Shown one piece after another: positions 3,901-63,983 of a stretch of DNA of 64,000 nt; the first letter of the stretch is position 1; every line of letters begins with the position of its first letter. A program made the translations under genes and the position numbers. The stretch comes from an uncultured Ectothiorhodospiraceae bacterium (GTDB lineage Bacteria > Pseudomonadota > Gammaproteobacteria > UBA9214), in contig CAMYMI010000008.1 of the NCBI GenBank assembly GCA_947259415.1, forward strand, positions 4,368-68,367, in the 5' to 3' direction. The notes under the pieces are model-generated. The model made no database searches and had not been told where the DNA came from. It worked only from the letters and a program-made list of their open reading frames with translations.

Positions 3901-4949
3901 AACTCGGTCTTGCCGTTAACGACATCCATACGGAGCTGGCCGATTACACCACGACCGTAATCGCCCAGGAGGCCACCAATCTTGGACACGAGGTCTGGTA
4001 TATCAGCCTGGCCGATTTTGCCTACGACCCCGATGAAAACGTGCATGCCTGGGCGCGCTCTGTGCCGAAACGCCGTTACCGTTCCCGGAGCGTCTACCTC
4101 GAGGACCTGCAGGGCAAGGCGGCGACTGCCGAGCGTATCGCCGTGGATACCCTGGATGTGTTGTTGTTGCGCAATGACCCGGCGCAGGATGTGTTCGAAC
4201 GCCCCTGGGCGCGCCTGGCCGGTATCAATTTCGGCCGTCTTGCCAGGCGCCACGGCGTCATCGTCCTGAATGATCCCAATGGCCTGGCCAAGGCGGTAAA
4301 CAAGATGTACCTGCAGTATTTCCCCGTGGAGATCCGGCCTCGAACGTTGATCAGCCGTCACCCGGAGGATATCAGGCACTTCATAGATGAAGAGGGCGGT
4401 ACCGCGGTTCTGAAGCCGTTGTCCGGTTCGGGTGGCCATAACGTATTTCTGATTCAGCCGCAGGATAAGGCGAATATCAACCAGATCATCGAGGCGATCT
4501 GCCGGGAAGGTTATGTCCTCGCCCAGGAATTCCTGCCCGAGGCGCTGCGGGGTGATACCCGCGTATTCCTGATGAATGGCTATCCCCTGCAGTGCCGGGG
4601 GCATTACGCGGTGCTGCACCGCGCCCGGGGTCAGGAAGACGGCGACTTCCGCAGTAACATGACCGCCGGTGCCGTGGCGAGAGAGGGCCGGGTCACCGAT
4701 GGTATGTTGCAGGTCATCGAGACGGTACGCCCCAAGCTCGTACAGGATGGCATGTTCTTTGTCGGCCTGGATATTGTGGGTAACAAGCTGATGGAGATAA
4801 ATGTCTTCAGCCCCGGTGGGCTGGAGTCCGCACAACAGCTGGAAGGGCAGAATTTTGTACGTGAATTGGTACAGGCCCTGGAACACAAGGTGGAATCATT
4901 ACACCGTTATCATCGTAATCTCGATAATATCGAACTGGCCACCCTGTAA
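3897..4949 (+). CDS. gshB: Glutathione synthetase-like ATP-grasp ligase
   Basis: LRNDP, KPL.GSGG.NVF, QEFLP..GDTR, FRSN..AG, GLDIVGNKLMEINVFSPGG. ATG at 3897 overlaps the upstream TGA, GGAGG RBS. N-terminus diverges from canonical GshB. Confidence 0.8.
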   Translation: MKLGLAVNDIHTELADYTTTVIAQEATNLGHEVWYISLADFAYDPDENVHAWARSVPKRRYRSRSVYLEDLQGKAATAERIAVDTLDVLLLRNDPAQDVFERPWARLAGINFGRLARRHGVIVLNDPNGLAKAVNKMYLQYFPVEIRPRTLISRHPEDIRHFIDEEGGTAVLKPLSGSGGHNVFLIQPQDKANINQIIEAICREGYVLAQEFLPEALRGDTRVFLMNGYPLQCRGHYAVLHRARGQEDGDFRSNMTAGAVAREGRVTDGMLQVIETVRPKLVQDGMFFVGLDIVGNKLMEINVFSPGGLESAQQLEGQNFVRELVQALEHKVESLHRYHRNLDNIELATL

Positions 4950-47644: not shown

Positions 47645-47689
47645 CTCTGGGTAGAATCTGTGAAAGAATTTCCAAAAATCTACCCAGAG
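47645..47689. promoter_or_regulatory. 11-bp inverted repeat upstream of the methyltransferase, probable autoregulatory operator
   Basis: CTCTGGGTAGA (47645-47655) ... TCTACCCAGAG (47679-47689), abutting the RBS. Confidence 0.6.
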
Positions 47690-47698
47690 AGGAAACTG

Positions 47699-48946
47699 AT
47701 GGAACAGCTAAATGAGGCCGCCCGTGATGCACTTACTGTTGCCCTATCACGATATCCAAAGACTCAACTAGCTGAAGAATTATCAATCACAACCAAAACC
47801 CTGGATAGCTGGCTCAACAAGAACATCCCGAGTCCCGGTCTGGTTTATCACGCTGTCCATGGTTTTCTTGAATCCCGGAAGCGCATTGCAGGAAAAAGTG
47901 ACGCTCCCTTCAAGTTTATCGATCTATTCGCGGGTATCGGCGGGATTCGTCTTGGCTTCGAGGCGCACGGTGGTAAATGCCTCTTTACCAGTGAATGGGA
48001 CAAGTTCTCTATTCAGACCTACCGAGAGAATTTCAAGGAAGATGAGCATGCGATTCACGGTGACATAAGAGAAATCACAATAGATTCTGACAGAATCAGA
48101 GAAATGATTCCGGATCATGATGTCTTGCTTGCAGGATTTCCCTGTCAGCCTTTTTCAATTGCCGGTGTGTCAAAAAAGAATTCCCTTGGCAGGGCGCATG
48201 GCTTTGAATGCAAGACTCAAGGGACACTGTTCTATGAAATTGCAAAGATTATTGATGAAAAACAGCCGGGTGCTTTCCTGCTCGAGAATGTCAAAAACCT
48301 GAAGAGCCATGACAAGGGCAGGACTTACCAGACTATCCTTGACGTCCTGCGCAATGATCTTGGTTACTACGTACCCGAGCCCAGAGTAATAGATGGCAAG
48401 CATTTTGTGCCGCAGCACCGGGAAAGACTCATAATTGCCGGTTTCCGCAGGCCAGTAGCATTTGACTGGAATGATCTTGAGCTGCCAGATCTGGATTCTG
48501 CGCCAAGGCTGGGATCAATATTTCAGCAGGAAAGTGAAGTCGACAAGAAATATATTCTGACCAAAAATCTCTGGGACTATCTCCAAAACTATGCGCGCAA
48601 GCACAAGGCGAAGGGGAATGGTTTTGGTTTCGGCAAGGTTGGTCCCGATGATGTCGCCAGAACCCTCTCAGCTAGATACTACAAGGATGGTTCCGAGATA
48701 CTGGTCAAGAGAGGAAAGACCGGTAACGCAAGGCCAAGGCGCTTAACCCCGAGGGAATGCGCAAGACTGATGGGGTTTCCTGATTCCTTCGATATTCCGG
48801 TCTCGGACACCCAGGCCTACAAGCAGTTTGGTAACTCTGTAGTTGTTCCAGTGATTGAAGAGGTTGCCAGGATCATGTATCCGCACATCATGATACTCAA
48901 GCAGGAACAGGAGCTTGGCGAAGACCAGTACGCAATGGTTGTCTGA
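47699..48946 (+). CDS. dcm: DNA (cytosine-5) methyltransferase, Dcm/M.EcoRII-like, with N-terminal HTH
   Basis: [54 protein letters not shown]-terminal [18 protein letters not shown] helix-turn-helix. Confidence 0.95.
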
Positions 48947-49422
48947 TGGTTGATGTAGTTGATCCGGTGACCCGCAGCCGGATGATGTCCGGCATCCGTA
49001 GTAAAAATACAAGACCCGAGATTCTGATACGAAAAGGCCTGCATGCCAGGGGCTTTCGCTTTCGCCTGCATGACAAACGCCTCCCCGGAAAGCCGGATAT
49101 GGTTTTTCCAAAGTACGGCGCCGTAATCTTTATTCATGGCTGTTTTTGGCACGGCCATGACTGCCATTTGTTCAAGTTGCCGAAAACCCGCCGTGCTTTC
49201 TGGCATAAAAAGATTTCTCGTAATCAGGAAAAGGATGCGGAAAGTTATGCCAGTCTGAGAAAAGAAGGATGGTACATACTGACTATATGGGAGTGCGCCC
49301 TGAAGGGCAGAACGAGACGTCCTTTGGGGGAGGTTTTGGACTTGGTGGCCGACTGGCTTGTATATGAGTTACGTAATCGACAGATCAGTGGCATAAAGCG
49401 CAGGAATGTACAGCAGAAATGA
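48946..49422 (+). CDS. vsr: Very short patch repair endonuclease
   Basis: RSRMMS.IRSKNTRPE, LPGKPD, FIHGCFWHGH, IWEC. Confidence 0.95.
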   Translation: MVDVVDPVTRSRMMSGIRSKNTRPEILIRKGLHARGFRFRLHDKRLPGKPDMVFPKYGAVIFIHGCFWHGHDCHLFKLPKTRRAFWHKKISRNQEKDAESYASLRKEGWYILTIWECALKGRTRRPLGEVLDLVADWLVYELRNRQISGIKRRNVQQK

Positions 49423-50642
49423 AAAGGGGATTTCTATCAGAATATTTCGAGGGCGTAGCAGTCAAGCGCCTGAGTGCTGTCGAAGCAGACCCGGTGTCTT
49501 CAAACCAGCACGAGTTCAATGGTGTTGGCTCCATGAGGAAAATGCTCGGATCCGGGCGCCAGACATTTACCGCCCGGTTCGCCTATCTGGGCGAGGACGA
49601 GGACGATACCTCCTCTGCAGAGGGTTTCCTGACGTGGTATGACGCGCGTGAAGCACATCCGACCAGATCCGAATACCGCCTGTATTTCCCTTCCACTGCT
49701 GTGTCGGAACGTGCAGCGGAAGGCGATCTCATGGTTATCGGCAAACGTCAGGATGGTACTCTCCAGGTAATTATCGCCATGGCTGGCAGTACAGCCGAGA
49801 ACCAGTTGAGTTGGCTGTTTGGTGTACCGGTACAGATTGAGACAAGATTTGAGATTCGCGCATTCAAGGATGACACTGATGTTGAGGTGAATTTTGCTGC
49901 AAGATTCATCCTCGAGGAGCTGGGAGTAGAAATTGAAGAAGCTGATACGGACAGGCTGAACGGCCTGATTGAAAAATTCCACGGAGTGTTTCCGAGTACG
50001 GCAATCTTTTCTGCGTATGCGCGCGACACCTTGCCGGAGGTTGATCCCCGGGAAGATCCGGATGCGGCGCTACTGGCCTGGATGGAACAAGAGGAGAAAC
50101 TGTTTCGGAGACTTGAAAACCAGATTGTGTCCGAGCGCCTTAAGCAGGGATTCAGGGTAGAAGACAGTGCAGATGTGGATGCTTTTATCAGTTATTCGCT
50201 CAGTGTGCAGAACAGACGCAAGTCGCGTGCTGGTTATGCACTGGAACATCACCTTGATGAAATTTTCCGGGAAAATAATGTGCAATATGCACGCCAGGCT
50301 GTTACAGAAAACAACGCAAAACCGGATTTTCTTTTTCCGGGGGAAGCCGAGTATCACGATGAAAATTATTCGCCTGACAAGCTGTCAATGCTGGGTGTGA
50401 AGACCACCTGCAAGGATCGGTGGCGGCAGGTATTATCTGAGGCGAAAAGGATAAAACAAAAACATCTGTTTACTCTGGAGCCTGCCATCAGTGCTAACCA
50501 GACGTCCGAGATGGATGCACATCATGTCCGTCTGGTACTGCCTGCAGGGCTGCACAGCACCTACTCTGCGGAACAGCAAGGGAAGCTGTCTGATTTGCAG
50601 TACTTTATTGGCGTTGTGAAGGAGCGCCAGAGTCTCGTGTGA
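49419..50642 (+). CDS. Type II restriction endonuclease, EcoRII-like
   Basis: N-terminal KRLS.VE...SNQHE and R.EYRL. C-terminal NRRKSRAG..LE.H, KPDFLFPG, KTTCKDRWRQV..EA (EcoRII-C motifs). Confidence 0.88.
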   Translation: MKRGFLSEYFEGVAVKRLSAVEADPVSSNQHEFNGVGSMRKMLGSGRQTFTARFAYLGEDEDDTSSAEGFLTWYDAREAHPTRSEYRLYFPSTAVSERAAEGDLMVIGKRQDGTLQVIIAMAGSTAENQLSWLFGVPVQIETRFEIRAFKDDTDVEVNFAARFILEELGVEIEEADTDRLNGLIEKFHGVFPSTAIFSAYARDTLPEVDPREDPDAALLAWMEQEEKLFRRLENQIVSERLKQGFRVEDSADVDAFISYSLSVQNRRKSRAGYALEHHLDEIFRENNVQYARQAVTENNAKPDFLFPGEAEYHDENYSPDKLSMLGVKTTCKDRWRQVLSEAKRIKQKHLFTLEPAISANQTSEMDAHHVRLVLPAGLHSTYSAEQQGKLSDLQYFIGVVKERQSLV

Positions 50643-51400: not shown

Positions 51401-52164
51401 AGTCCGGCGTCCTCCATACGTGTCACCAGCAACTCGCACAGTTCATGTCGTCTGCAGAATTCTGTGACCACACCATCAATCCAGTCATTCAGTTCGAAAG
51501 GATCGGCCGAGTCCGGCTTGTCTTCAGGCGAGATGAAGCTTGCAAAATCGATCCATGGCTTGTGCCAGGAATCCTCGTCAGCATCTTCCTCGGCTATATT
51601 CAGGAAGATAAACAGCAATGTCTCGCGCAGGGCAGCAGGCAGTATCAGGCCCTGGAAGAGCGGGTTATTCATCAGCTGCCCCTTGGCTTCAGGGATGCGG
51701 TTATTGATACAGAGAACGGGCTTGCTGTCCGGTATGAAGCTCATTTTCCAGGTCAGATCACCGAGGTCCGTACTCTTGAACGTCATCAACGATGCGCGAC
51801 TTTCCTCTTCCTCGTCTTCTTTGGGTCGCAGACGTTCTGCACTTGCTACCAGCCTGCCGATTCTTTCGGACTTGTCGACCACCTTGACCCGGAACAGGAT
51901 CGGACCTGACAGATCAAGCTGGTCCAGGGTTCGGTCCTCAGGCGGAATCGGTGATCCGGCTGTTCCGAAATGAAAGCGTTGTGAAGTGTTCTTGTGATAA
52001 GCCTCGACATACAGTGCAGCATCTGCAGACAGCTTGCTCGAATCCAGTCTGAAGCTTGCATCAAAGGAGGGCGGGGCATGCGGGTGCTCGTTCAGGGTGA
52101 TCTGTACTTCTGTGCGCTTGATCTTTTTACGCCCGGTATGATTGATATGTCTGGAAGTCTTCAT
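51397..52164 (-). CDS. Hypothetical protein (third gene of the GHKL operon)
   Basis: 255 aa, ATGA-coupled on both sides, beta-rich N-terminal half. No family recognised. Confidence 0.8.
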   Translation of the reverse strand: MKTSRHINHTGRKKIKRTEVQITLNEHPHAPPSFDASFRLDSSKLSADAALYVEAYHKNTSQRFHFGTAGSPIPPEDRTLDQLDLSGPILFRVKVVDKSERIGRLVASAERLRPKEDEEEESRASLMTFKSTDLGDLTWKMSFIPDSKPVLCINNRIPEAKGQLMNNPLFQGLILPAALRETLLFIFLNIAEEDADEDSWHKPWIDFASFISPEDKPDSADPFELNDWIDGVVTEFCRRHELCELLVTRMEDAGL

Positions 52165-54014
52165 TCGCTCGCCTCCAGTGTCTGCAGATCGACCTTGAGA
52201 TCACGGTTGTGATCAAATCCGGTCACCTCGATACGGAAATCAGGCTCATTGATATTAAACTCAAGGATGTTCGCCTTCCGGTCCACCAGCATGGCCTTTG
52301 GTGAATCGGTACGAATGGATAACTCGCCCGTTCGATTGAAGTCAAAATCAAAGGGATTGTATTTCTTGAACGGATTGCCAGACATAATGTCGTAGGCAAC
52401 GCGCACCCGGCACCGAACCGGATACAGATCTGGGCTGGCATCATTACCCGGCAATACTGCAAACCCGCCCTTGATGGGTGTAATTCTGGCAGGTTTCAGC
52501 TTGGGCTCCGGTATCGGAGGAATATCCGGCGGTGTCTTTCCTCTCCTGCCTTTCTTGTGAGGCTGGTCCGGCAGTTCCGTCCAGAAAAACTCCATCAGCG
52601 CCTGTTCATCCTCTTCCTCGATGGATTGAGCGAGCAAGTCATAAAGGTTGACCACCGAGTTGCGGATGACCTTCAGCTTTGGCTGCGGATTGACATAATT
52701 TTTGCGCAGCTTCTCTGCCTGGGTGTTCCAGCGGGTATGGGCGGCATTTTCGGCATCGCCCAGGAAGGCTGCGATGGGCTCTTCTTCCGCAATCATGGCG
52801 CCAAGTGCCTTACGCTCCCGGAACTTGGCTTCTCCCGGCAGAGTCAGTCCGCCGCGGACATACATATCGTGGCCTTTCGTGAGTTCCTCGGGGCGTTTCA
52901 CATAAACCGAGAAACCAGACTCAATAACTTCCTTGTTCTTGCGTTTGATCGTAAGGGGCAGATACACGCCCACCATTTCCTTGTTTGCAAACCGTTCTCG
53001 CAGATTTTCCAGGTCTTCCGGCTCGATGTCATCCTCATCGAGCTTGCTGTCATCTGCCCAGCTCTTCTTGAGAATGAGCAGATCGGATTCCGGTGTATTG
53101 TTCATCTCGCCAATAAAGTCAAACAACTGGTCAATGTCAGATATCTTGCCGGTGGCGTACCGATTGGCGAGCTCGCGGATATTGCCGGAATTGATTTCGA
53201 TATCATCAAAGTTCAGTACCAGCTGACCGGTAATGATTGGGTAGAAGTAGTTGACGATACCGACGGCAATCATGTTTTCGAGATCCAGTTCCGGGTTCGG
53301 AAACGGGACAGCGATGGAGAGCCCGGTCTGGTCACGTCTTTCCAGGCCAAAGTTATTGCAGAACGCAGCGGTAACATCACCGCCCCGCACCGGAACCTGG
53401 ATCTGGTTGTTCGGATCCTCGCCTGCCAGCTCGGAAAAGAAAGCGTGTGCCGGATATTCGACGCCACCATATTTGTGGAATCCTAGTACGGTCTGTCCCA
53501 TCAGGTACGGGTCAGGGTCTCCAGACCGGACAGTCACGCCAAAAAAGGAACTCAACAGCGAAGAGCTGGAATAAACAAGCTTACCAAGTCCCCAGCGCCC
53601 CCGGCTGCGACCGGTCTTGTGGGAACGGCCATGGCGCCGCCAGAAGTCAGTGAAATTGTCATCATCCTTTTGCTCGACAGAGCCGGTCAGTCCGCGGGTG
53701 CCGAAGTCCTCAATGATCAGAGCGGAGGGGTTGTTAAAGTCAAGCTCGTTGAGTTCAATCCCGGCCGAGGCGGCATGTTCAAGATGACCCTCGAAAAGTT
53801 GTCGCATATAACCGTTGTGTAACCCGCTGCAGCCATTGACCCAGCGAAATTTAACCCGGACCTGGTCTTCACCTATAGCGGCATCAAGCGAATTCTGGAC
53901 CGCTTCCCGCACAATGGTATCGGAGAGGTCAACCTCGTCATTGCGGAACTGATCCCGCTGGGTAACCTCGGTTTCAACCAGATTCTGTGGTTGGGGGACA
54001 AAATGCCATTTCAT
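52161..54014 (-). CDS. GHKL (HATPase/MORC-like) ATPase domain protein
   Basis: Bergerat motifs REAVQNSLDA (I), IEDFGTRGL (II), GRWGLGK (III), TGLSI (IV). AAGGA RBS. Confidence 0.8.
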   Translation of the reverse strand: MKWHFVPQPQNLVETEVTQRDQFRNDEVDLSDTIVREAVQNSLDAAIGEDQVRVKFRWVNGCSGLHNGYMRQLFEGHLEHAASAGIELNELDFNNPSALIIEDFGTRGLTGSVEQKDDDNFTDFWRRHGRSHKTGRSRGRWGLGKLVYSSSSLLSSFFGVTVRSGDPDPYLMGQTVLGFHKYGGVEYPAHAFFSELAGEDPNNQIQVPVRGGDVTAAFCNNFGLERRDQTGLSIAVPFPNPELDLENMIAVGIVNYFYPIITGQLVLNFDDIEINSGNIRELANRYATGKISDIDQLFDFIGEMNNTPESDLLILKKSWADDSKLDEDDIEPEDLENLRERFANKEMVGVYLPLTIKRKNKEVIESGFSVYVKRPEELTKGHDMYVRGGLTLPGEAKFRERKALGAMIAEEEPIAAFLGDAENAAHTRWNTQAEKLRKNYVNPQPKLKVIRNSVVNLYDLLAQSIEEEDEQALMEFFWTELPDQPHKKGRRGKTPPDIPPIPEPKLKPARITPIKGGFAVLPGNDASPDLYPVRCRVRVAYDIMSGNPFKKYNPFDFDFNRTGELSIRTDSPKAMLVDRKANILEFNINEPDFRIEVTGFDHNRDLKVDLQTLEASE

Positions 54015-54974: not shown

Positions 54975-56810
54975 CTAAGCTGGTCCTGCAACGCGATGAA
55001 CCCCGGCCGGCGCGAGAAGGCTCTCTATCCAGGCGACTGGGCCTCCTCGGTTGGTGCAGAGCGTAAAAAATGCCCGTTGTTCTGCTCGTGTAAAAGCGAC
55101 AAAAAATGAATTGAGTTCTTCAATTCTATTGGGTGTCAGGCTCCACCATGTCTGGTTATCAAGCCCGTAGAAAATCATCGTATGAAACTCAAGTCCCTTG
55201 CTCTTGTGAATGGTCATCAGAGCAACTTGATCAAGTCCTTCAAACTGATCGATAGCATCCGCCCAGCTTGCTGCATCATCTGCAGTTTCAGCGAGAAGAT
55301 CGGCGAACCCTGTCCACACCCGGTCAAAATCCTGCTGGCGCCGGTACCCCGGGAAGGCCCGTCTCAAAATGGAAGTACCGATAAAATCAAGCGCACGTCT
55401 CGCAATTGTCCGTGCTGCGTCATTATCTGGTTCAAGGGTATTCATTTCAGTGCGCAGTTCGCGAATAAATGTCTGTAAACGCTGCTGCAAACGCTGCTGG
55501 CCTACCTCATCGTGAGGATAGATCCCTTCAAGAAATTGCAGGTTTCGCTGCGCGCTGTTCCATGAAATGGGATTCTTAATGGTCGCACCAAGCCGAAGAA
55601 GGGGAAGAAGAATCGCTGTCAGCTCTTCGCCTAAAAGATCCTGAATAGCAATGTTACCAATATTTCGCGCAACATTGCGCAGTTTCACATCATGCTGAGT
55701 CAGGGATGCTGCGAGTACCTGTTCCACATCATTGGCATGCATGCGAACGAGTATCGCGATTTCATGCGGGTCAATACCGTTGTCAATTTCTCCGGCGATC
55801 CATGCGGCGAGGCCATCCGCTTCATTTTCATTGCTTTCATATTGCCAGATCGCTGCGACATCGCCGTCCACATTGCGGTCAGCACGTGCCTCCGCTTGCT
55901 CGGCCTGCGGGTCGATACGCTTCGCTATAACGTGTTGGATGCGGACTAGATCCTCGTGCGATCGCCAGTTCGATACAAGCGGAATTCGTCTTGCATCGAA
56001 ATCGGCTTCAAATCGTGCGAATGCATCGGGCATTGCGCCAGCCCAACCCATGATGCGCTGCTTGTCATCACCCACGGCAGTAAAGATCGCGCTGCTGCCA
56101 TCAAAGGCGGTGTGAAGGAGATCGAACTGCGCGTAGGTCGTGTCCTGGAATTCATCGAGAAAGACGAATGGATAAGTTGCCTGTAGAGCGCGGCGAATAT
56201 CGGGATTCTCGCGCAGCAGCCAGTCCACTAGACGATTGATCATGGGAAAGGACAGAAATACCTCGTCTTTTTCGGTGTACTGCGCGTGCCAGTAGGCCCG
56301 TAATGCGTTTTCCACTCCATCAGCTAGCGGGAGACGGGTGCGTGCAACATTCCGCTCTAGTGTGGCTATATTTACGCCGTGGTAGTTGTGGCTGGTCAGG
56401 AAATGCTGTAACTGCTGCCGAGTGGGGAAATCGATCCTATAGTTTGGCGGTGGCGAAAAAGGCGCGGGAATTGCTGCCCGGAAACGATCAACGAAGCCCT
56501 TTGTAAACGCATCAAAGGTCATCGAATCAAAGCGGCCCGCCTGCTCGGGCGGGCATCGCTTTTCAACACGCTCGGCGAGATTCCGTGCTGCGTCCCGCTT
56601 GAAACTAATGGCAAGGATCCGCTTCGGGGCTGGGCATATCCCAGTCTGCAGAAGATAGGTTCCCTTCTGAGCAAGGAACTCTGTCTTGCCGGCCCCGGCA
56701 CCGGCCGTCACGCAGACGCTGCGACCGTTCTCCTGTAGCGCTTCCCAGGCGCGCGGCTCAAGGTCGTCAACGCCCTGCGGTCGCCACGAATCTGGCGGCA
56801 CAAGTTTCAT
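54975..56810 (-). CDS. UvrD/Rep-family SF1 helicase (GajB-like)
   Basis: AGAGAGKT, DEFQD, VGDDKQRI, NWRS, MTIHKSKGLEF, VAFTRA. ATGA-coupled to the OLD nuclease. Confidence 0.9.
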   Translation of the reverse strand: MKLVPPDSWRPQGVDDLEPRAWEALQENGRSVCVTAGAGAGKTEFLAQKGTYLLQTGICPAPKRILAISFKRDAARNLAERVEKRCPPEQAGRFDSMTFDAFTKGFVDRFRAAIPAPFSPPPNYRIDFPTRQQLQHFLTSHNYHGVNIATLERNVARTRLPLADGVENALRAYWHAQYTEKDEVFLSFPMINRLVDWLLRENPDIRRALQATYPFVFLDEFQDTTYAQFDLLHTAFDGSSAIFTAVGDDKQRIMGWAGAMPDAFARFEADFDARRIPLVSNWRSHEDLVRIQHVIAKRIDPQAEQAEARADRNVDGDVAAIWQYESNENEADGLAAWIAGEIDNGIDPHEIAILVRMHANDVEQVLAASLTQHDVKLRNVARNIGNIAIQDLLGEELTAILLPLLRLGATIKNPISWNSAQRNLQFLEGIYPHDEVGQQRLQQRLQTFIRELRTEMNTLEPDNDAARTIARRALDFIGTSILRRAFPGYRRQQDFDRVWTGFADLLAETADDAASWADAIDQFEGLDQVALMTIHKSKGLEFHTMIFYGLDNQTWWSLTPNRIEELNSFFVAFTRAEQRAFFTLCTNRGGPVAWIESLLAPAGVHRVAGPA

Positions 56811-58798
56811 TCGTCATCATCCCCAAAGCCAAGTACATTTTTAACATGTTCGATGAGAGATTTCAGGGATGCAGGCGAATCCTCTAAAAGCTGCTTATCA
56901 AGTATGCGTGCGAGTGCGGCAAGATGGGTTTCTGGTTTGCTGCGGTGAAGAAACAGATAGGGATACCATCTGAAGACTTCATCATAGTCGCCACCGTAGA
57001 GCTTCGGGTCGCCGCTGGTTTTCAATGTGGCTGCCTTGGCACTTTCAAGAGCTTTGGCGGTGCTGCGAGGTCCATAACCACCCGGATTGGGATGCATGTA
57101 GGCGCCCGGGAATGCTTCGAGCATCGCAAAATCAAGGTCAAGCGGATCGGACAAGAACACCCCTTCATCCTCGAGCGCCTGCACCCAGTGATTTTGCTCG
57201 TAATCCAGCCAGAGGTCATCGTCCTCGAGATCATCGATCGCATCAGGATCGATATCGTCGAGGACGGCCTTGATGTTGTTGCTGAGATCGACGCCGATTA
57301 CAGTCAGGTTCTCGGCAACGCTGCGAATGATCCCAGCACCGCCGTGCGCGCGGCCGATATCAAAATCGAGCAGCGTCGCATATGGGATTTTCAGGTCGGA
57401 CAGTAACGTCCAAAAATGTGTGCAATACCGCCCACCTAGGGGGACGATCGGCACAAAGGACGGATCGAGCGATATCCCCATAGCTTCGGCGATCCGCGGT
57501 ATGACTAGCTGCTCTGAGTCGCCTTCTGCAAGTATGACAAATCGTGCGAAATACAATTCCGGATAGGCCCTGACTGCGAGCCGCACATATTGGCTGGCCT
57601 CTGCATCGCTCATCGGGAGCATCAACTTGCGCACGGATGACTGCCTGCGCTCGCGGTCCAGCCGAAAATACCGAACCTCCTCCGGTTCGATGCGGCTGAG
57701 GATTGCTGCAGAATGGCTCGACAATACAACCTGTGCTGTATCGAGCGCACCAATGTCGCGCGCCTGCATAATAATGCGCGATAAAAAGAAGGGCGAGAGA
57801 CTGTTCTCCGGTTCTTCTATAGCCAGGAGCGTGAGGTGCGCCCTGCGCAGCTTTTCCTGGTCGAACGCGCTTTCATCGGGCGGTAGGGCAAAAGCATCTC
57901 GCTCGACTTCGAGGGTCGCGGCTGTCAGGGCAATGTGAAAGAGCGAGCGCTGCCCGTCGCTTAATTCTGAAAGTGCTCGCTCCTGTCCGGCCTCATCGGG
58001 ATAGAACGCAAAGTCCGCCTTGCGGACAAATTCTTCAAATCGGCGTTCTACCAGGCGTAAAATCGGTGTCGTATCGGTATCGGCCTCATGCACTTGTTTC
58101 CATCGTGCCTCGAGTCTTTCCAATACAAACTTGGCCGGATCCTCATCCTGAAACGTCTCCTGGATTTGTCTTGCGGTGTCCGCGGTAGTCTGCCGGAATT
58201 CTTCCGACCATTTTGCGGCCTGCCATAGACGCCCCTTGAGAAGGGACGTCACCTGTTCATCCACATTACGCGTGGCGGGAATATAGACAAGTTGTATCGT
58301 CCCACGCTCGACAGCCGGCACCTTCTGGCAGTCGTCATCCCAGTCGTAATCGTCGTCAAGCGCCCTGACCCAGCGAATATCCTCATCAACGCTGCCGCTC
58401 GGCGTACCATCATCGGTCCAGGTCGCCTTGAGCATGATTCTTACTTTCAGCGGCGCGCCGGGTTCGGAGGCGGCCATTTGCAGGAAGAACTCAGGCACGG
58501 CATCGCCCACAGCGTCACCCTCGAAACCTTCGAGTTCCGGGAAACAAAGGACGACATCAATAAGTAAATTCGCCCCTGATTGAAGCTCCTGCTGGTCGAG
58601 AGACAGATGAAAGTCGCGCTGGCGAATCGTGCGTTGGGCAGGCGTGACGCCGAATAAACGCGAGAGTCCCTGAAGCAGCGCGGTTTTTCCCGCGCCGTTC
58701 CCGCCGACAAGGGCAGTGACGCTGTCTTCAATAGCAATTGTCGTTGCTTCCGGGCCAAAGCACCTGAACCCTTTCAAGGACACGCTTTCTATCTTCAT
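56807..58798 (-). CDS. OLD-family ATP-dependent nuclease (ABC ATPase + Toprim, GajA-like)
   Basis: GFRCFG, GGNGAGKT, LSDGQ, AIEEPE, SSHS, Toprim ILAEGDSE and DFD. Confidence 0.9.
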   Translation of the reverse strand: MKIESVSLKGFRCFGPEATTIAIEDSVTALVGGNGAGKTALLQGLSRLFGVTPAQRTIRQRDFHLSLDQQELQSGANLLIDVVLCFPELEGFEGDAVGDAVPEFFLQMAASEPGAPLKVRIMLKATWTDDGTPSGSVDEDIRWVRALDDDYDWDDDCQKVPAVERGTIQLVYIPATRNVDEQVTSLLKGRLWQAAKWSEEFRQTTADTARQIQETFQDEDPAKFVLERLEARWKQVHEADTDTTPILRLVERRFEEFVRKADFAFYPDEAGQERALSELSDGQRSLFHIALTAATLEVERDAFALPPDESAFDQEKLRRAHLTLLAIEEPENSLSPFFLSRIIMQARDIGALDTAQVVLSSHSAAILSRIEPEEVRYFRLDRERRQSSVRKLMLPMSDAEASQYVRLAVRAYPELYFARFVILAEGDSEQLVIPRIAEAMGISLDPSFVPIVPLGGRYCTHFWTLLSDLKIPYATLLDFDIGRAHGGAGIIRSVAENLTVIGVDLSNNIKAVLDDIDPDAIDDLEDDDLWLDYEQNHWVQALEDEGVFLSDPLDLDFAMLEAFPGAYMHPNPGGYGPRSTAKALESAKAATLKTSGDPKLYGGDYDEVFRWYPYLFLHRSKPETHLAALARILDKQLLEDSPASLKSLIEHVKNVLGFGDDDE

Positions 58799-59037
58799 GG
58801 CCGTAACCGCCTGCCTTGAAAAGTTGCCAACATTCCTTTTTTCATGCCAAGCTGCCAATCGGAGGTGTGGAGTAAACGAACTTTATCGCTTGTTTGCATC
58901 CCAGATTCTCCTAACGATCAATCAGGGGTCGAGGAGGCACAATATACCCGTGTAGAATGCGGGGATCACCTTTTTTGAAGAATGTATCCGGCCGCTTTAG
59001 TTGATTCCACGCTGGGTGCAACCGGGAGGATTTCACC

Positions 59038-59470: not shown

Positions 59471-59619
59471 CGAATTAGGGGACAGTATACTTATATCGCT
59501 GCAATGACAGGTTTTTCGTTATCAGAGAGCATTTTCTTAATCGGGCCCATATCCGGATTTGTGTACTGTTTGATACAAGTTCATGAATTGTCTGTGCGAC
59601 TTTCAGAGGGGTTATCCGG
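59471..59619 (+). repeat. 149-bp direct repeat, copy 1
   Basis: Matches 60766-60914 with 3 mismatches by eye. Begins CGAATTAGGGGACAGTATAC. Confidence 0.9.
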
Positions 59620-59690
59620 CGGATTCAAGGGGTCAGAGTACTTGAATAAAATTTCTAGTACTCCGACCCCTTGAATTCCAGTTGCACCGG

Positions 59691-60765: not shown

Positions 60766-60914
60766 CGAATTAGGGGACAGTATACTTATATCGCTGCAAT
60801 GACAGGTTTTTCGTTATCAGAGGGCATTTTCTTAATCGGGCCCATATCCGGATTTGTGTACCGTTTGATACAAGTTCATGAATTGTCTGTGCGACTTTCA
60901 GAGGGATTATCCGG
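60766..60914 (+). repeat. 149-bp direct repeat, copy 2
   Basis: See 59471-59619. Confidence 0.9.
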
Positions 60915-60935
60915 TGGGCTGCGCCGGACTCCGGT

Positions 60936-60964
60936 TTGACAAAAGCCCGCATCGGGTCTATAAA
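60936..60964 (+). promoter_or_regulatory. Sigma70-type promoter
   Basis: TTGACA-17 bp-TATAAA, ending 8 nt before the first riboswitch aptamer. Confidence 0.75.
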
Positions 60965-60972
60965 TAATTCAT

Positions 60973-61028
60973 AGCGCCGATTTGACTCAGCTTGCAGGGC
61001 GCTTAATAAATACTCGCTAAAGAGAGGG
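60973..61028 (+). promoter_or_regulatory. SAM-II-like riboswitch aptamer 1
   Basis: P1 AGCGCC/GGCGCT, GATTT, TTGC, A-rich L3 (AATAAAT) and GCTAAAG, in the order of the SAM-II pseudoknot consensus. Confidence 0.78.
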
Positions 61029-61032
61029 ACAG

Positions 61033-61066
61033 AAACCCGCTTTAGCACCAGCTGAGCGGGTTTTTT
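61033..61066 (+). terminator. Intrinsic terminator forming the expression platform of aptamer 1
   Basis: AAACCCGCT...AGCGGGTTTTTT. CTTTAGC (61040-61046) is complementary to aptamer GCTAAAG (61016-61022). Confidence 0.8.
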
Positions 61067-61070
61067 GTTG

Positions 61071-61126
61071 CCGCCGATTTAAGTGACAACTTGCGGGGCG
61101 GGATACAAGTGCTGCTAAAGCGTCAT
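61071..61126 (+). promoter_or_regulatory. SAM-II-like riboswitch aptamer 2 (tandem)
   Basis: P1 CCGCC/GGCGG, GATTT, TTGC, ATACAAGT, GCTAAAG. GTGAC can pair with GTCAT. A downstream hairpin covers GAGGAG. Confidence 0.78.
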
Positions 61127-61187
61127 GTGTCTTCGTGCCCCGGACACCGCTGACAGGCGATCAACCGGGGCGAAGAGGAGACATGTT

Positions 61188-61388
61188 ATGTCCGCACAAT
61201 CCGCCGATATCCTGACCCTGTTTCAGGGCAGCTACACCGTCCTGCAACCCATTTCCATCCGCGGCGAGGTCTGGCTCGAGCGCCACGTCGACTCGGCCCA
61301 GCGCCTGGGCACGGCCGTGCCTGTCGACAACAGCCTCCTGGCACCCATTCTGGAGGGGCTTGTCCGTGACGGGCTGCGGGTTGCCTGA
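61188..61388 (+). CDS. Small hypothetical protein (66 aa)
   Basis: GAGGAG RBS then ATG 61188. MSAQSADILTLFQGSYTVLQP...GLVRDGLRVA. Confidence 0.72.
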   Translation: MSAQSADILTLFQGSYTVLQPISIRGEVWLERHVDSAQRLGTAVPVDNSLLAPILEGLVRDGLRVA

Positions 61389-61678
61389 TGGACGGGCTGG
61401 AGACGATCAGGCGGCGCAACAACCGGGCCGTAGCCAGCCAGGGCCTGTGGTGCAGGGTGGCCGATATAGACGGCGGGCGCTGGTTTGCCGGTGATGTCAT
61501 CGACGTGCGGGACGATCCCGCCGGCAACGTCACGGTCAAGCTGCGCCCGGTCTGTCTGTCGCACAAGGGGCAGCTCCCACAGTACCAGCAGGATTCAGGC
61601 GCCGGCTGGGGCTTCTTGCTGGCGCTGTGGCTGGGTGCGCAGGGTCTGTTGTGGGTGCTGAGTTGGGTGCTGAAATGA
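61388..61678 (+). CDS. Small hypothetical protein with C-terminal TM helix
   Basis: TGATG overlap with the upstream ORF. SH3/Tudor-like beta segment, then GWGFLLALWLGAQGLLWVLSWVLK. Confidence 0.62.
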   Translation: MDGLETIRRRNNRAVASQGLWCRVADIDGGRWFAGDVIDVRDDPAGNVTVKLRPVCLSHKGQLPQYQQDSGAGWGFLLALWLGAQGLLWVLSWVLK

Positions 61679-61788
61679 CAGGAGTTGCCGGCGTGAACAA
61701 TGCCGGATTTGACTGGATCGCGCCTGCGAGGCGTTTCTACAATTATAAGGATTACGTAGTTGGGTTTTGAACGAGTTGGGTTTCAGTG

Positions 61789-61844
61789 CCGCCGATTTGA
61801 TCTGCAGCTTGCAGGGCGGGATACAAATGCTGCTAAAGCGTTGG
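61789..61844 (+). promoter_or_regulatory. SAM-II-like riboswitch aptamer 3
   Basis: P1 CCGCC/GGCGG, GATTT, TTGC, ATACAAAT, GCTAAAG. The following CTGTCC...GCCCC / GGGGC...GGACAG hairpin covers the RBS of the ORF at 61904. Confidence 0.78.
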
Positions 61845-61903
61845 CTGTCCCGCATGCCCCGGGGACGACCGGCGAGGTCAATCACGGGGGCGAGGACAGG
61901 ACC

Positions 61904-62602
61904 ATGAGCAAAGCAAGATCCGACACAGAAACGCTTTTCCACCCCATCGAGCAGGCCATCCTGTGCGACTGGCTGGGGCGCGAGCGGCCGCCCGCGGCCC
62001 GCGACATTGCCCTCGAGGCGCAGGTGGACGGGACTGACGACGGGCCGATTACCCTGAGGCGCGCCTCCTATGGCGACACCAACGAGTTCACGCTGGCCAA
62101 TGCCGTGGCCCGGCTGGTGCTCGAGGGCATCCAGCAGCGGCTGCCGACCTCGGCGATCTGCTATCCCGACAAAATGGTGCTCACGCGCGACTACAACCCG
62201 AAGACCCGGCGCAAGCTGGACCTGCTGCCACGCTTCCTGTTCCAGATCAACTGGGCCAATTCAGCGCCCGGCATCAGCTGGCCGGTTGCGTACTACGTGA
62301 CCTGGCTGCCGGTCTACGATGTCTTTGTGGTCACCGAGTCGGCCGACTCGCCGGACGCGCTGGGCTACTGCGACCGCGCGATGGGCTGGTTCGACGCGGT
62401 CACCCCGCTCGAGGCAGGCGCGAAGCGCGTGATTGCCGGCGACTGGCAGCATCAGTACGATGAGTGGGACCAGCAACACTGGGAAAATTTCTGGGACGAG
62501 GGGTTGATCTCGACGGCAGAGGCCTGGGCCTGGGCAGCCGATATTTGGGGAGAAGAGGAAGACGATCTGGACAACGAGGAGGCGGATGAGGCCTGCCTGT
62601 GA
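61904..62602 (+). CDS. Acidic Trp-rich hypothetical protein (232 aa)
   Basis: AGGA RBS, ATG 61904, host-like codon usage, F.INWA.S.PG.SWP..YY.TW and VVT.S.DS motifs. No family recognised. Confidence 0.8.
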   Translation: MSKARSDTETLFHPIEQAILCDWLGRERPPAARDIALEAQVDGTDDGPITLRRASYGDTNEFTLANAVARLVLEGIQQRLPTSAICYPDKMVLTRDYNPKTRRKLDLLPRFLFQINWANSAPGISWPVAYYVTWLPVYDVFVVTESADSPDALGYCDRAMGWFDAVTPLEAGAKRVIAGDWQHQYDEWDQQHWENFWDEGLISTAEAWAWAADIWGEEEDDLDNEEADEACL

Positions 62603-62679
62603 CGCGCGGTCGGCGGAGGGGTATCCTGAGTCTGGTGACAGGGAGACCGGGAGCCTGGTCTCCCGAAAGAGGGTGATAC

Positions 62680-63429
62680 ATGTCCAAGTACTACAAGGGA
62701 AAACGTACGCGCAATCTCTACGTGCCGGGGGGTGAAAAACCGTTCAAGCTGTCCCGCTCGAAGCTCGAGCTGTTCATGAACTGCCCGCGCTGCTTCTACC
62801 TGGACCGGCGGCTGGGTGTTGGTCAGCCGCCCGGTTTCCCCTTCAACCTGAACTCGGCCGTTGATGCCTTGCTCAAGAAGGAGTTCGATGACTACCGGGC
62901 CAGGCAAGAGCCACACCCCCTGATGATTACAAACGAAATTGATGCCGTTCCGTATGCCCATGAGTCACTGGATAAGTGGCGAGAGAACTTCAAGGGAGTT
63001 GCTACTCATCACAGGGAGACTAACTTGCGCGTTTCTGGTGCCGTTGATGATCTCTGGGTCAACCCGGCGGGTGAGGTGATCGTGGTTGACTACAAGGCCA
63101 CCAGCAAGAATGGCGAGATCAACCTCGATGCAGACTGGCAGGATGGCTATAAGCGCCAGATGGAGATCTACCAGTGGCTGGTGCGACGCCAGGGCCTGGC
63201 CGTATCCGACACCGGTTATTTCGTCTACTGCAACGGCCGACGCGACAGGGATGCCTTCGATGGCAGGCTGGAGTTCTATATCCATGTAATTCCCTATACG
63301 GGGAATGATGGCTGGGTAGAGGACTGTATCAGGGCTGCGCATGAATGCCTTGTGGATGACATGATTCCGGAATCGAGTTCTGATTGTGATTACTGCAGGT
63401 ATCGCAAAGCGGTACAGGAAGTGAAATAG
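62680..63429 (+). CDS. PD-(D/E)XK nuclease family protein (RecB/AddB-like, stand-alone)
   Basis: LSRSKL....CPRCFY, GAVDD, VVDYK, Q..IY, C-terminal CDYC. GAGGG RBS. Confidence 0.88.
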   Translation: MSKYYKGKRTRNLYVPGGEKPFKLSRSKLELFMNCPRCFYLDRRLGVGQPPGFPFNLNSAVDALLKKEFDDYRARQEPHPLMITNEIDAVPYAHESLDKWRENFKGVATHHRETNLRVSGAVDDLWVNPAGEVIVVDYKATSKNGEINLDADWQDGYKRQMEIYQWLVRRQGLAVSDTGYFVYCNGRRDRDAFDGRLEFYIHVIPYTGNDGWVEDCIRAAHECLVDDMIPESSSDCDYCRYRKAVQEVK

Positions 63430-63461
63430 TTGTATTCTGTATACTGTCCCCGGTTTGTCTG

Positions 63462-63512
63462 AAGGGGTCAGAGTACTTGAATAAAATTTCTAGTACTCTG
63501 ACCCCTTGAATT
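63462..63512. repeat. 51-bp GGGGTCAGAGTAC hairpin, direct repeat of 59627-59677
   Basis: AAGGGGTCAGAGTACTTGAATAAAATTTCTAGTACTC(T/C)GACCCCTTGAATT, one mismatch between copies. Confidence 0.85.
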
Positions 63513-63560: not shown

Positions 63561-63983
63561 ATGAATACATTTAGCGTAATTTTGAGTGGCGTAGCAGTAT
63601 TTATATTGGGCGAAATATTCGTGCGCTTTTTCTTGTCGCCCATTCATAAAATTAAAGAAGTAAAAGGTGAAATAGCTAGCACCCTATTATTTCATGCAAA
63701 CAATTATGGGCATGAATATAAAAATCTTGAAGATGCTCTTGCGAGTGAAGGAGGGGATGAAAGATTTATTAATGAAAGGATAATCTCAATTAAACAATGG
63801 AACAATGATTTATCAAGAGCAAGCGATGAAACCAGGGCTGTTGCAGCCAAGCTTATTTCTGCTGCAGAAGGAATCCCCTTTTATAAAGAAATATCCATGA
63901 TGAAGATGATTCCGCCAAAAGAAAATATTCTAAGCGCAAAAAGAGATCTCATTGGTTTGTCGAACTCGTTTTCTGCAGACTAA
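63561..63983 (+). CDS. AT-rich hypothetical protein with N-terminal TM helix
   Basis: 140 aa ORF in a conspicuously AT-rich segment, hydrophobic N-terminus. Confidence 0.6.
   Translation: MNTFSVILSGVAVFILGEIFVRFFLSPIHKIKEVKGEIASTLLFHANNYGHEYKNLEDALASEGGDERFINERIISIKQWNNDLSRASDETRAVAAKLISAAEGIPFYKEISMMKMIPPKENILSAKRDLIGLSNSFSAD

Follow-up and report, generated by a model that had tools for sequence, protein, structure and literature searches.

What does a riboswitch for S-adenosylmethionine (SAM) do in front of genes that do not look like methionine genes? The question was raised by a 64,000-nt stretch of DNA (the window) from an uncultured Ectothiorhodospiraceae bacterium (UBA9214; genome of 3.2 Mb), which covers positions 4,368–68,367 of the forward strand of contig CAMYMI010000008.1 (assembly GCA_947259415.1; labelled C8). 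Towards its end, three SAM-II-type aptamers accompany two small open reading frames (ORFs) and the gene of an acidic protein of 232 amino acids (aa). Few regulons have been mapped as well as those of SAM riboswitches, which act almost exclusively on genes for sulphur, methionine or SAM enzymes. An earlier note on this DNA had proposed that the targets here are not methionine genes, and this proposal held: the cargo was not recognisable as methionine genes, and the 66-, 96- and 232-aa proteins had no match in Pfam, NCBIfam, PHROGs or PADLOC. Taken as a whole, the results make it likely that the region is an acquired cassette with its own SAM-II OFF switches, whose 232-aa cargo is made in SAM shortage. 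In such a cassette, foreign genes would be wired to the SAM level of the host via riboswitches that they brought along.

SAM-II aptamers and the 232-aa family

The three motif copies that had been read at 60973, 61071 and 61789 were present, and correspond to aptamer 1 (60971–61028), aptamer 2 (61068–61126) and aptamer 3 (61786–61844) on the plus strand. The core strands GAUUU, CUUGC and GCUAAAG occurred in this order. An exact-pattern scan of the whole genome for the core (GATTT...CTTGC...GCTAAAG) gave five real sites and one doubtful site. Thirty aptamers (six of this genome, 24 of others) were aligned, and a covariance model (R1) with helix P1 only was built. Fifteen columns were invariant over the 30 aptamers, the metZ leader of the host included. 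P1, which reads AGCGCC/GGCGCU in aptamer 1 and CCGCC/GGCGG in aptamer 2, was found to covary: 90% of the cells were paired (36–66% in slid controls), 27 cells had changed on both sides, four of the six pairs varied on both sides, and none of 500 shuffles attained the score. These results bore out both the P1 compensation and the SAM-II class assignment of the earlier note.

The genome was then represented by six R1 sites with scores of 61–72.5 bits, and the next best site scored 16.9 bits. The six were the metZ leader, the three window copies (64.6, 62 and 69.8 bits), C8:68462–68519 and C30:17572–17630, all of which were in the R1 training alignment, so that their scores are high by construction. 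Independent of the training were 29 of the 53 R1 matches in the loci described below, and all 27 matches in the genomes of relatives.

Relatives of the 232-aa protein were collected from other genomes by a scan of one genome per species. The resulting 56 loci (numbered with L) span Beta-, Gamma- and Alphaproteobacteria, Opitutales and other Verrucomicrobia, Chlorobiaceae, Nitrospira, Gemmatimonadetes and Arcobacter. The 53 R1 matches, of which 52 were on the gene strand, fell in 27 loci, and an aptamer stood directly before the family member in 21 loci. In the 29 loci without an R1 match, an Rfam scan at gathering thresholds located SAM-I/IV aptamers upstream on the same strand in L028, L052, L059 and L031 (two copies, of which the second ends 6 nt before the match) and, likewise, a SAM-V aptamer in L037. 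In all, a SAM-II, SAM-V or SAM-I/IV riboswitch was present upstream on the same strand in 32 of the 56 loci. The plan of the window was repeated in L021, where a tandem leader, genes for MetK and an HD_4 hydrolase, and a third aptamer precede the family member. A SAM-II-type aptamer (31.8 bits) was also observed in L041 (5697–6633), just after the family member and directly before a gene for a histone-deacetylase-family protein (Hist_deacetyl, 3.2e-32).

Because 32 of the 56 loci have an upstream SAM riboswitch, the 232-aa family is assigned to the SAM regulon, and the predicted ligand of the three window aptamers is SAM. Since control by SAM-II, SAM-V or SAM-I/IV has been kept in many lineages, the 232-aa protein is expected to be made when SAM is short, and a role in the response to a lack of SAM or methionine is most likely.

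The cargo family is large. A word-indexed search returned 90 homologues, all unnamed, and a profile search returned 785 cluster representatives at E ≤ 1e-3, 327 of them at E ≤ 1e-30; the family thus comprises at least 785 sequence clusters. The AlphaFold2 model, calculated from 90 sequences, had a predicted local distance difference test score (pLDDT) of 90.1 and a predicted template modelling score (pTM) of 0.86. The Foldseek comparison suggested by the earlier note gave no structural match against the PDB at E ≤ 0.001. The best Z value in a wide all-against-all search with VIA-align was 3.4, no match was obtained among the BFVD viral structures, the ESM Atlas gave no usable match, and the best E value of the profile against PDB sequences was 0.69. 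No fused form of more than 510 aa was found in the search. Ten longer members matched DUF3293 only (2.1e-18), with Mrr_N and HEAT_2 below threshold, and a literature search on DUF3293 found no paper. A set of aromatic and acidic residues is conserved in the 232-aa protein (W117, W126, Y130, W181, W193, W215, E16, D148 and D157) and might form a pocket for a cation. The 232-aa protein, which has an acidic C-terminal tail, is accordingly modelled as a member of a large unnamed family whose predicted fold is unmatched. SAM riboswitches of three structurally distinct classes converge on this one family, for which there is neither a name nor a Pfam model nor a structural neighbour, and they thereby mark it as a missing piece of SAM biology.

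Several results weigh against a SAM-controlled cassette that is expressed in SAM shortage. Rfam at gathering thresholds gave no match in the window. In E-value mode over 60850–61950, the SAM-II model RF00521 (SAM_alpha) matched aptamer 1 at 29.5 bits (E = 1.8e-4) and aptamer 3 at 18.1 bits (E = 0.24), and aptamer 2 was unlisted; none of the three attains the gathering score of 36 bits, which is an operational threshold of one model and not a property of the RNA class. In the printed alignment, aptamer 1 agreed with the RF00521 consensus at GAUUUGAC, GCUUGCA and CGCUAAAGAG. The metZ-like leader of the host (C9:82761–82837), which is followed by a terminator and a 395-aa Cys/Met-metabolism pyridoxal-phosphate enzyme (C9:82776), scored 24.6 bits in the whole-genome E-value search and was also sub-threshold. 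Since this canonical methionine leader scores below aptamer 1, the curated model appears to be weak for the lineage. Aptamers before the 232-aa family in L017 (41.8 bits) and L029 (37.7 bits) passed the gathering score, and these were the sole two RF00521 matches among 14 loci scanned. The covariance check that had been proposed for the window therefore had a divided outcome: the gathering score was missed by all three copies, whereas aptamer 1 was detected at E = 1.8e-4 and R1 separated the six genome sites. Rfam E-value matches to SAM-VI (18.9 bits, E = 1.1, over the hairpin of aptamer 2), isrA and P9 were rejected as chance-level.

The second point concerns helix P2a, the loop-to-tail pairing of published SAM-II structures as described in PMC6061858. 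The earlier note had read such a pairing in each copy. The sequences were compatible with it (3, 5 and 4 bp in aptamers 1–3), but no excess over permuted pairs was found: over 34 aptamers, own pairs had a mean of 3.5 bp versus 3.37 bp for permuted pairs, and 387 of 2000 permutations were as good or better, in a crude script that mis-parsed some loops. The P2 strands were invariant in the aptamer alignment and hence uninformative on pairing. Moreover, 24 of the 56 loci, mostly from Opitutales and other Verrucomicrobia, had no known SAM riboswitch, and 11 of these were also searched in E-value mode with no match. Furthermore, no metabolic partner recurred beside the family except metK, in one locus (L021); the case for a SAM-shortage role is therefore one from regulation only. 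The equilibrium model of aptamers 2 and 3, treated with the switching logic below, belongs with these points. In the Opitutales-type loci (L034, L038–L040, L043, L045–L048, L050, L051 and L055), a direct repeat, TATGACAnnTATGACA, was shared about 110–130 nt upstream of the family member; it looks like a protein operator.

Defence setting and neighbouring genes

The cassette was located directly after a defence island. A C5 methylase, Vsr and an EcoRII-C restriction enzyme are encoded at 47660–50642, a PDC-M33A-like protein of 617 aa (1.5e-19) at 52161–54014, and a Gabija pair at 54975–58858 (GajB, 2.1e-216; GajA, 2.6e-235). The restriction-modification (R-M) locus and the Gabija-like pair of the earlier note were thus recovered as EcoRII-type R-M and GajA/GajB matches. 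The position of the cassette directly after these genes would suit a defence guard, in which a SAM-destroying phage derepresses the cassette and the 232-aa protein, the membrane-tailed 96-aa protein and the nuclease stop the infection. The patchy occurrence of the family would also suit a guard, as would the three layers of repression, which may be expected for a harmful product.

The composition of the other family loci was examined on this point. PADLOC was applied to 148 further neighbours (proteins of ≥130 aa from 216 called ORFs in 30 loci; 14 were omitted, most of them already annotated). MkoA was matched three times, MkoC, type II methylases and WYL proteins twice each, and one NERD+UvrD protein was detected; AIPR, ResIII and integrases also occurred in other family loci. 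Over all 56 loci, C5 DNA methylases were present in four and WYL regulators in five. These genes favour a guard, but the neighbourhoods were heterogeneous, since the 148 proteins belonged to 138 Pfam families, none of which was dominant and many of which were housekeeping. The family context is one of variable islands with some defence genes and no fixed system. Of the check proposed earlier, namely whether homologues carry the aptamer and lie in defence islands, the first part was supported by the 32 of 56 loci with a SAM riboswitch, whereas the second was answered by variable islands with only some defence genes. An HD_4 gene, of the alarmone-hydrolase type, lay by the family member in nine of the 56 loci. 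It overlapped the stop of the family member by 4 nt in L016 (4986–6262), and in L021 (4245–5687) it followed MetK under the tandem leader.

Neither the nuclease nor the two small proteins were conserved partners of the 232-aa family. Homologues of the 66- and 96-aa proteins were absent from the 56 loci, and the 96-aa protein had only two close relatives among 5.8 billion proteins. The nuclease recurred in two of the 56 loci, L042 (on the opposite strand, ~2.3 kb away) and L053, and was adjacent in neither. Its GC content was 55% (68% at third codon positions), compared with 65–66% (81–85%) for the three upstream genes and 60% for the window. Because of this low recurrence and differing GC content, the nuclease is treated as a neighbour and not as a proven part of the riboswitch unit, and the four proteins of the earlier note were not supported as one conserved module.

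The nuclease itself (62680–63429, plus strand; 249 aa) was a PD-(D/E)XK protein, as had been noted before. It matched PDDEXK_1 (PF12705) at 5.9e-15 and 56.3 bits versus a cut-off of 22, over residues 24–243. In this full-length match and in its matches to PADLOC Cas4 models, which were generic models only, it resembles Cas4 and AddB-type nucleases. In contrast to Cas4, it scored 32.1 bits against TIGR00372 (cas4), below the NCBIfam cut-off of 65, no CRISPR context was seen, and it was not conserved with the riboswitch module. Its membership in the riboswitch unit is doubtful.

Further points speak against the guard. PADLOC had no match for the 66-, 96- and 232-aa proteins, the family member of L021 is located in a riboswitch-led operon with metK, and methionine starvation would trigger the cassette too. 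A literature search for work that connects SAM riboswitches with phage defence, anti-restriction or phage enzymes that degrade SAM found no paper, and a search on SAM-II together with mobile genetic elements and hypothetical proteins found nothing relevant. A guard function is hence regarded as unlikely. The same low expectation applies to its boldest form, a riboswitch-only alarm with no protein sensor, in which a fall in SAM, for example through phage enzymes that degrade SAM to disarm R-M or BREX, would release a new-fold effector family in defence islands. A milder form would make the 232-aa family a new and widespread player in SAM homeostasis that was captured independently by three riboswitch classes. 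If the cargo does act against phage, this would be the first metabolite riboswitch used as an infection sensor.

Switching logic of the leader

Under the preferred reading, that of expression in SAM shortage, the cassette would be controlled at one transcriptional and two translational points. Transcription would begin at a near-consensus, sigma-70-like promoter on the plus strand (60936–60964), with TTGACA at 60936–60941, a 17-nt spacer and TATAAA at 60959–60964, which ends 7 nt upstream of aptamer 1. The promoter was read directly from the letters, as in the earlier note; a consensus promoter scan omitted it, since that scan accepts only T as the sixth base of the −10 hexamer.

The expression platform of aptamer 1 (61016–61066) consists of an antiterminator and an intrinsic terminator. 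The terminator stem is formed by 61033–61041 and 61055–61063 and is followed by a U-run to 61066; its loop is 13 nt, and it was unlisted by the scan tool. The fold of 60966–61075 had an energy of −36.8 kcal/mol (z −2.6). The tail GCUAAAG (61016–61022) was the exact complement of CUUUAGC (61040–61046), which overlaps the 5' arm of the terminator, and the tail with the adjoining GGG can pair with CCC...CUUUAGC (61036–61046) as the antiterminator. When the 3' arm was deleted in folding, the tail paired with the 5' arm at −12.1 kcal/mol. Without SAM, the tail would pair with the 5' arm and permit read-through, whereas with SAM bound it would be locked in the pseudoknot and the terminator would form. 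Aptamer 1 is thus, by sequence logic, a transcriptional terminator/antiterminator OFF switch. Among 18 aptamers examined as terminator-type candidates, 17 had a run of at least four U within 75 nt, and in most of these (about 12, not counted exactly) removal of the 3' arm let the tail pair with the 5' arm or loop.

Two observations concern elements that are similar to aptamer 1. An orphan aptamer with a terminator, very like aptamer 1, was found at C30:17572–17630. No ORF follows it for ~400 nt, and it could be a remnant or a small RNA derived from a riboswitch. RF02424 (Bp2_287, a Burkholderia 'sRNA') matched the minus strand at 60943–61066, over aptamer 1 and its terminator (22.2 bits, E = 0.014). 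The RF02424 consensus corresponds to the SAM-II core and a terminator in reverse complement, and this family may have been annotated antisense to a SAM-II leader.

Aptamers 2 and 3 were each followed by a long hairpin whose 3' arm holds the Shine-Dalgarno (SD) sequence and the start codon. The hairpin after aptamer 2 (61120–61191) pairs the SD GAGGAG (61175–61180) and both AUGs (61183 and 61188), and the fold of 61118–61200 had an energy of −36.6 kcal/mol (z −4.3; 0/200 shuffles as good). The hairpin after aptamer 3 (61838–61909) pairs the SD region GAGGACAGG and extends to the AUG at 61904; the fold of 61836–61915 had an energy of −35.4 kcal/mol (z −2.4; 5/200 shuffles as good). This plan was kept in other genomes, with an anti-SD, GCCCC, an inner stem, a UCAAC-like stretch, GGGGC and then the SD. 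By burying the ribosome-binding site (RBS) in these hairpins, SAM-bound aptamers 2 and 3 are inferred to lower the translation of the 66/96-aa pair and of the 232-aa protein, respectively, so that the latter would be made when SAM is short.

The direction of switching at aptamers 2 and 3 was where the model and the preferred reading diverged. In the equilibrium model, the SD was paired in both the free state and the SAM-bound mimic. The SD–AUG stretch was somewhat more open in the mimic for nine of 14 platforms (for example, from 0.25 to 0.32 and from 0.34 to 0.56), equally open for two and less open for three, where the mimic makes the aptamer and tail unavailable and removes pairs at the hairpin base by construction. 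The model hence leans ON rather than OFF. The OFF switching expected by the earlier note was supported for aptamer 1, by sequence logic. If aptamers 2 and 3 were ON switches, the cargo would be made when SAM is plentiful, for instance to consume or buffer SAM, and together with the upstream OFF terminator a band-pass would result. The overlap of the copy 2 P2a strand GUCAU with the base of the sequestering hairpin would agree with such a design. On the other side, the SD was paired in both modelled states, and the same gene family is found elsewhere behind two OFF designs, namely SAM-II aptamers whose pseudoknot strand contains the SD (GCUAAAGAGGAG..AUG; L015, L035 and L030) and SAM-I/IV aptamers followed by terminators (L028 and L052). 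OFF switching is favoured because of these two designs, because aptamers 2 and 3 belong to a common leader with an OFF terminator, and because a 'first terminator, second RBS' layout has been published for tandem SAM-II and is read there as RBS occlusion (44 examples; Sherlock et al., 2022, PMC9481103). The ON design is therefore considered improbable.

The same tandem layout was met at the window leader, where the terminator of aptamer 1 is followed by the RBS-occluding hairpin of aptamer 2, and in L021, L022, L042 and L044. As in the published tandem SAM-II and SAM-II–SAM-V systems, an intrinsic terminator is located at the first aptamer. Unlike them, the window has a third aptamer inside the operon before the 232-aa gene, and the systems of PMC9481103 are described as regulating sulphur-metabolism and SAM-biosynthesis genes. 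At S. meliloti metA, a SAM-II riboswitch controls a start codon at a distance of 74 nt downstream (Scheuer et al., 2022, PMC9373788); an aptamer is likewise followed by a hairpin here, with the start codon 68 nt downstream, but a separate SD lies by the start codon inside the hairpin, and none was evident in the aptamer tails of copies 2 and 3. Compared with RF00521 SAM-II (metA, metX and metZ leaders), the GAUUU/CUUGC/GCUAAAG core, the P1 covariation, the A-rich linker and a terminator/antiterminator that uses the tail are shared. The differences are the sub-threshold scores, which the host metZ leader has too, the control of an unnamed family and ORFans rather than methionine or SAM enzymes, and the presence of four copies within ~3.6 kb of contig C8. 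The RNA is hence of a known kind in a published arrangement, and the new part is the cargo family; the loci may already be in the supplementary lists of Sherlock et al. (2022).

The ORFs behind the hairpins agreed with the four of the earlier note (66, 96 and 232 aa, and the nuclease) and with the ORF list. The 66-aa ORF (61188–61388, plus strand) had no family match. The 96-aa ORF (61388–61678, plus strand), whose start overlaps the stop of the 66-aa ORF, encodes a hydrophobic C-terminus. The gene of the conserved 232-aa cargo spans 61904–62602 on the plus strand. The fourth aptamer, C8:68462–68519 (62.7 bits with R1), was located ~100 nt past the window end; it is followed by an RBS-burying hairpin of the same type and precedes a 50-aa ORF at C8:68579.

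Origin of the cassette

The distribution of the protein and of the aptamers among relatives was used to evaluate the origin of the region. The 232-aa protein was found in none of 60 relatives' genomes. Exactly one R1 site was present in 23 of 24 same-family genomes, compared with six in this genome, and the site was beside a metZ orthologue in 26 of 28 fetched loci (27 from relatives and the host's own). The GC content of the three cassette genes (65–66%) also exceeded that of the window as a whole (60%). These numbers suggest that the extra aptamers arrived with, or multiplied in, an acquired region, and that the region is a horizontally acquired cassette which brought its own SAM-II riboswitches. 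A riboswitch would thus be able to travel with foreign genes, leading to six SAM-II sites here versus one at metZ in relatives.

The vehicle of such a transfer could also explain the cargo. If the cassette were carried by a plasmid, phage or conjugative element, the 232-aa protein might be an anti-restriction or anti-defence factor whose expression is timed by SAM. RadC, orphan C5 methylases, HD_4 hydrolases, integrases and tRNA genes near some family members, and the acidic C-terminal tail of the protein, are consistent with this idea. Relatives were absent, however, from 2.9 million IMG/VR viral contigs, and from 72,556 PLSDB plasmids and 50,697 INPHARED phage records, the latter two sets being mostly from cultured organisms. 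This absence speaks against a phage or plasmid anti-defence gene, and the idea is judged very improbable. Least credible is another ligand, as the earlier note had allowed: SAM-II look-alikes would fit the sub-threshold Rfam scores and the non-methionine cargo, but all 15 invariant core columns are common to the host metZ leader, and relatives of the 232-aa gene are also found behind the structurally unrelated SAM-I/IV (four loci) and SAM-V (one locus) riboswitches.

Repeats were observed around the acquired cassette. A 152-nt direct repeat with 97% identity was located beside it at 59471–59622 and 60766–60917. A 13-nt inverted pair, GGGGACAGTATAC, brackets it at 60773–60785 and 63439–63451, and hairpin repeats of the form GGGGTCAGAG...CTCTGACCCC flank it at 59627–59677 and 63462–63512. 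The hairpin repeats were clustered on C29 (19 BLAST matches), C23 (10), C8 (5) and C3 (4). An integron was considered for these clusters and rejected, as no integrase scored above the cut-off (best 90.4 versus 265 bits) and no attC-like cores were seen by eye. Beyond the flanking repeats, a 140-aa ORF at 63561–63983, with a GC content of 36% compared with 60% for the window, matched the uncharacterised family phrog_7512 (1.4e-09).

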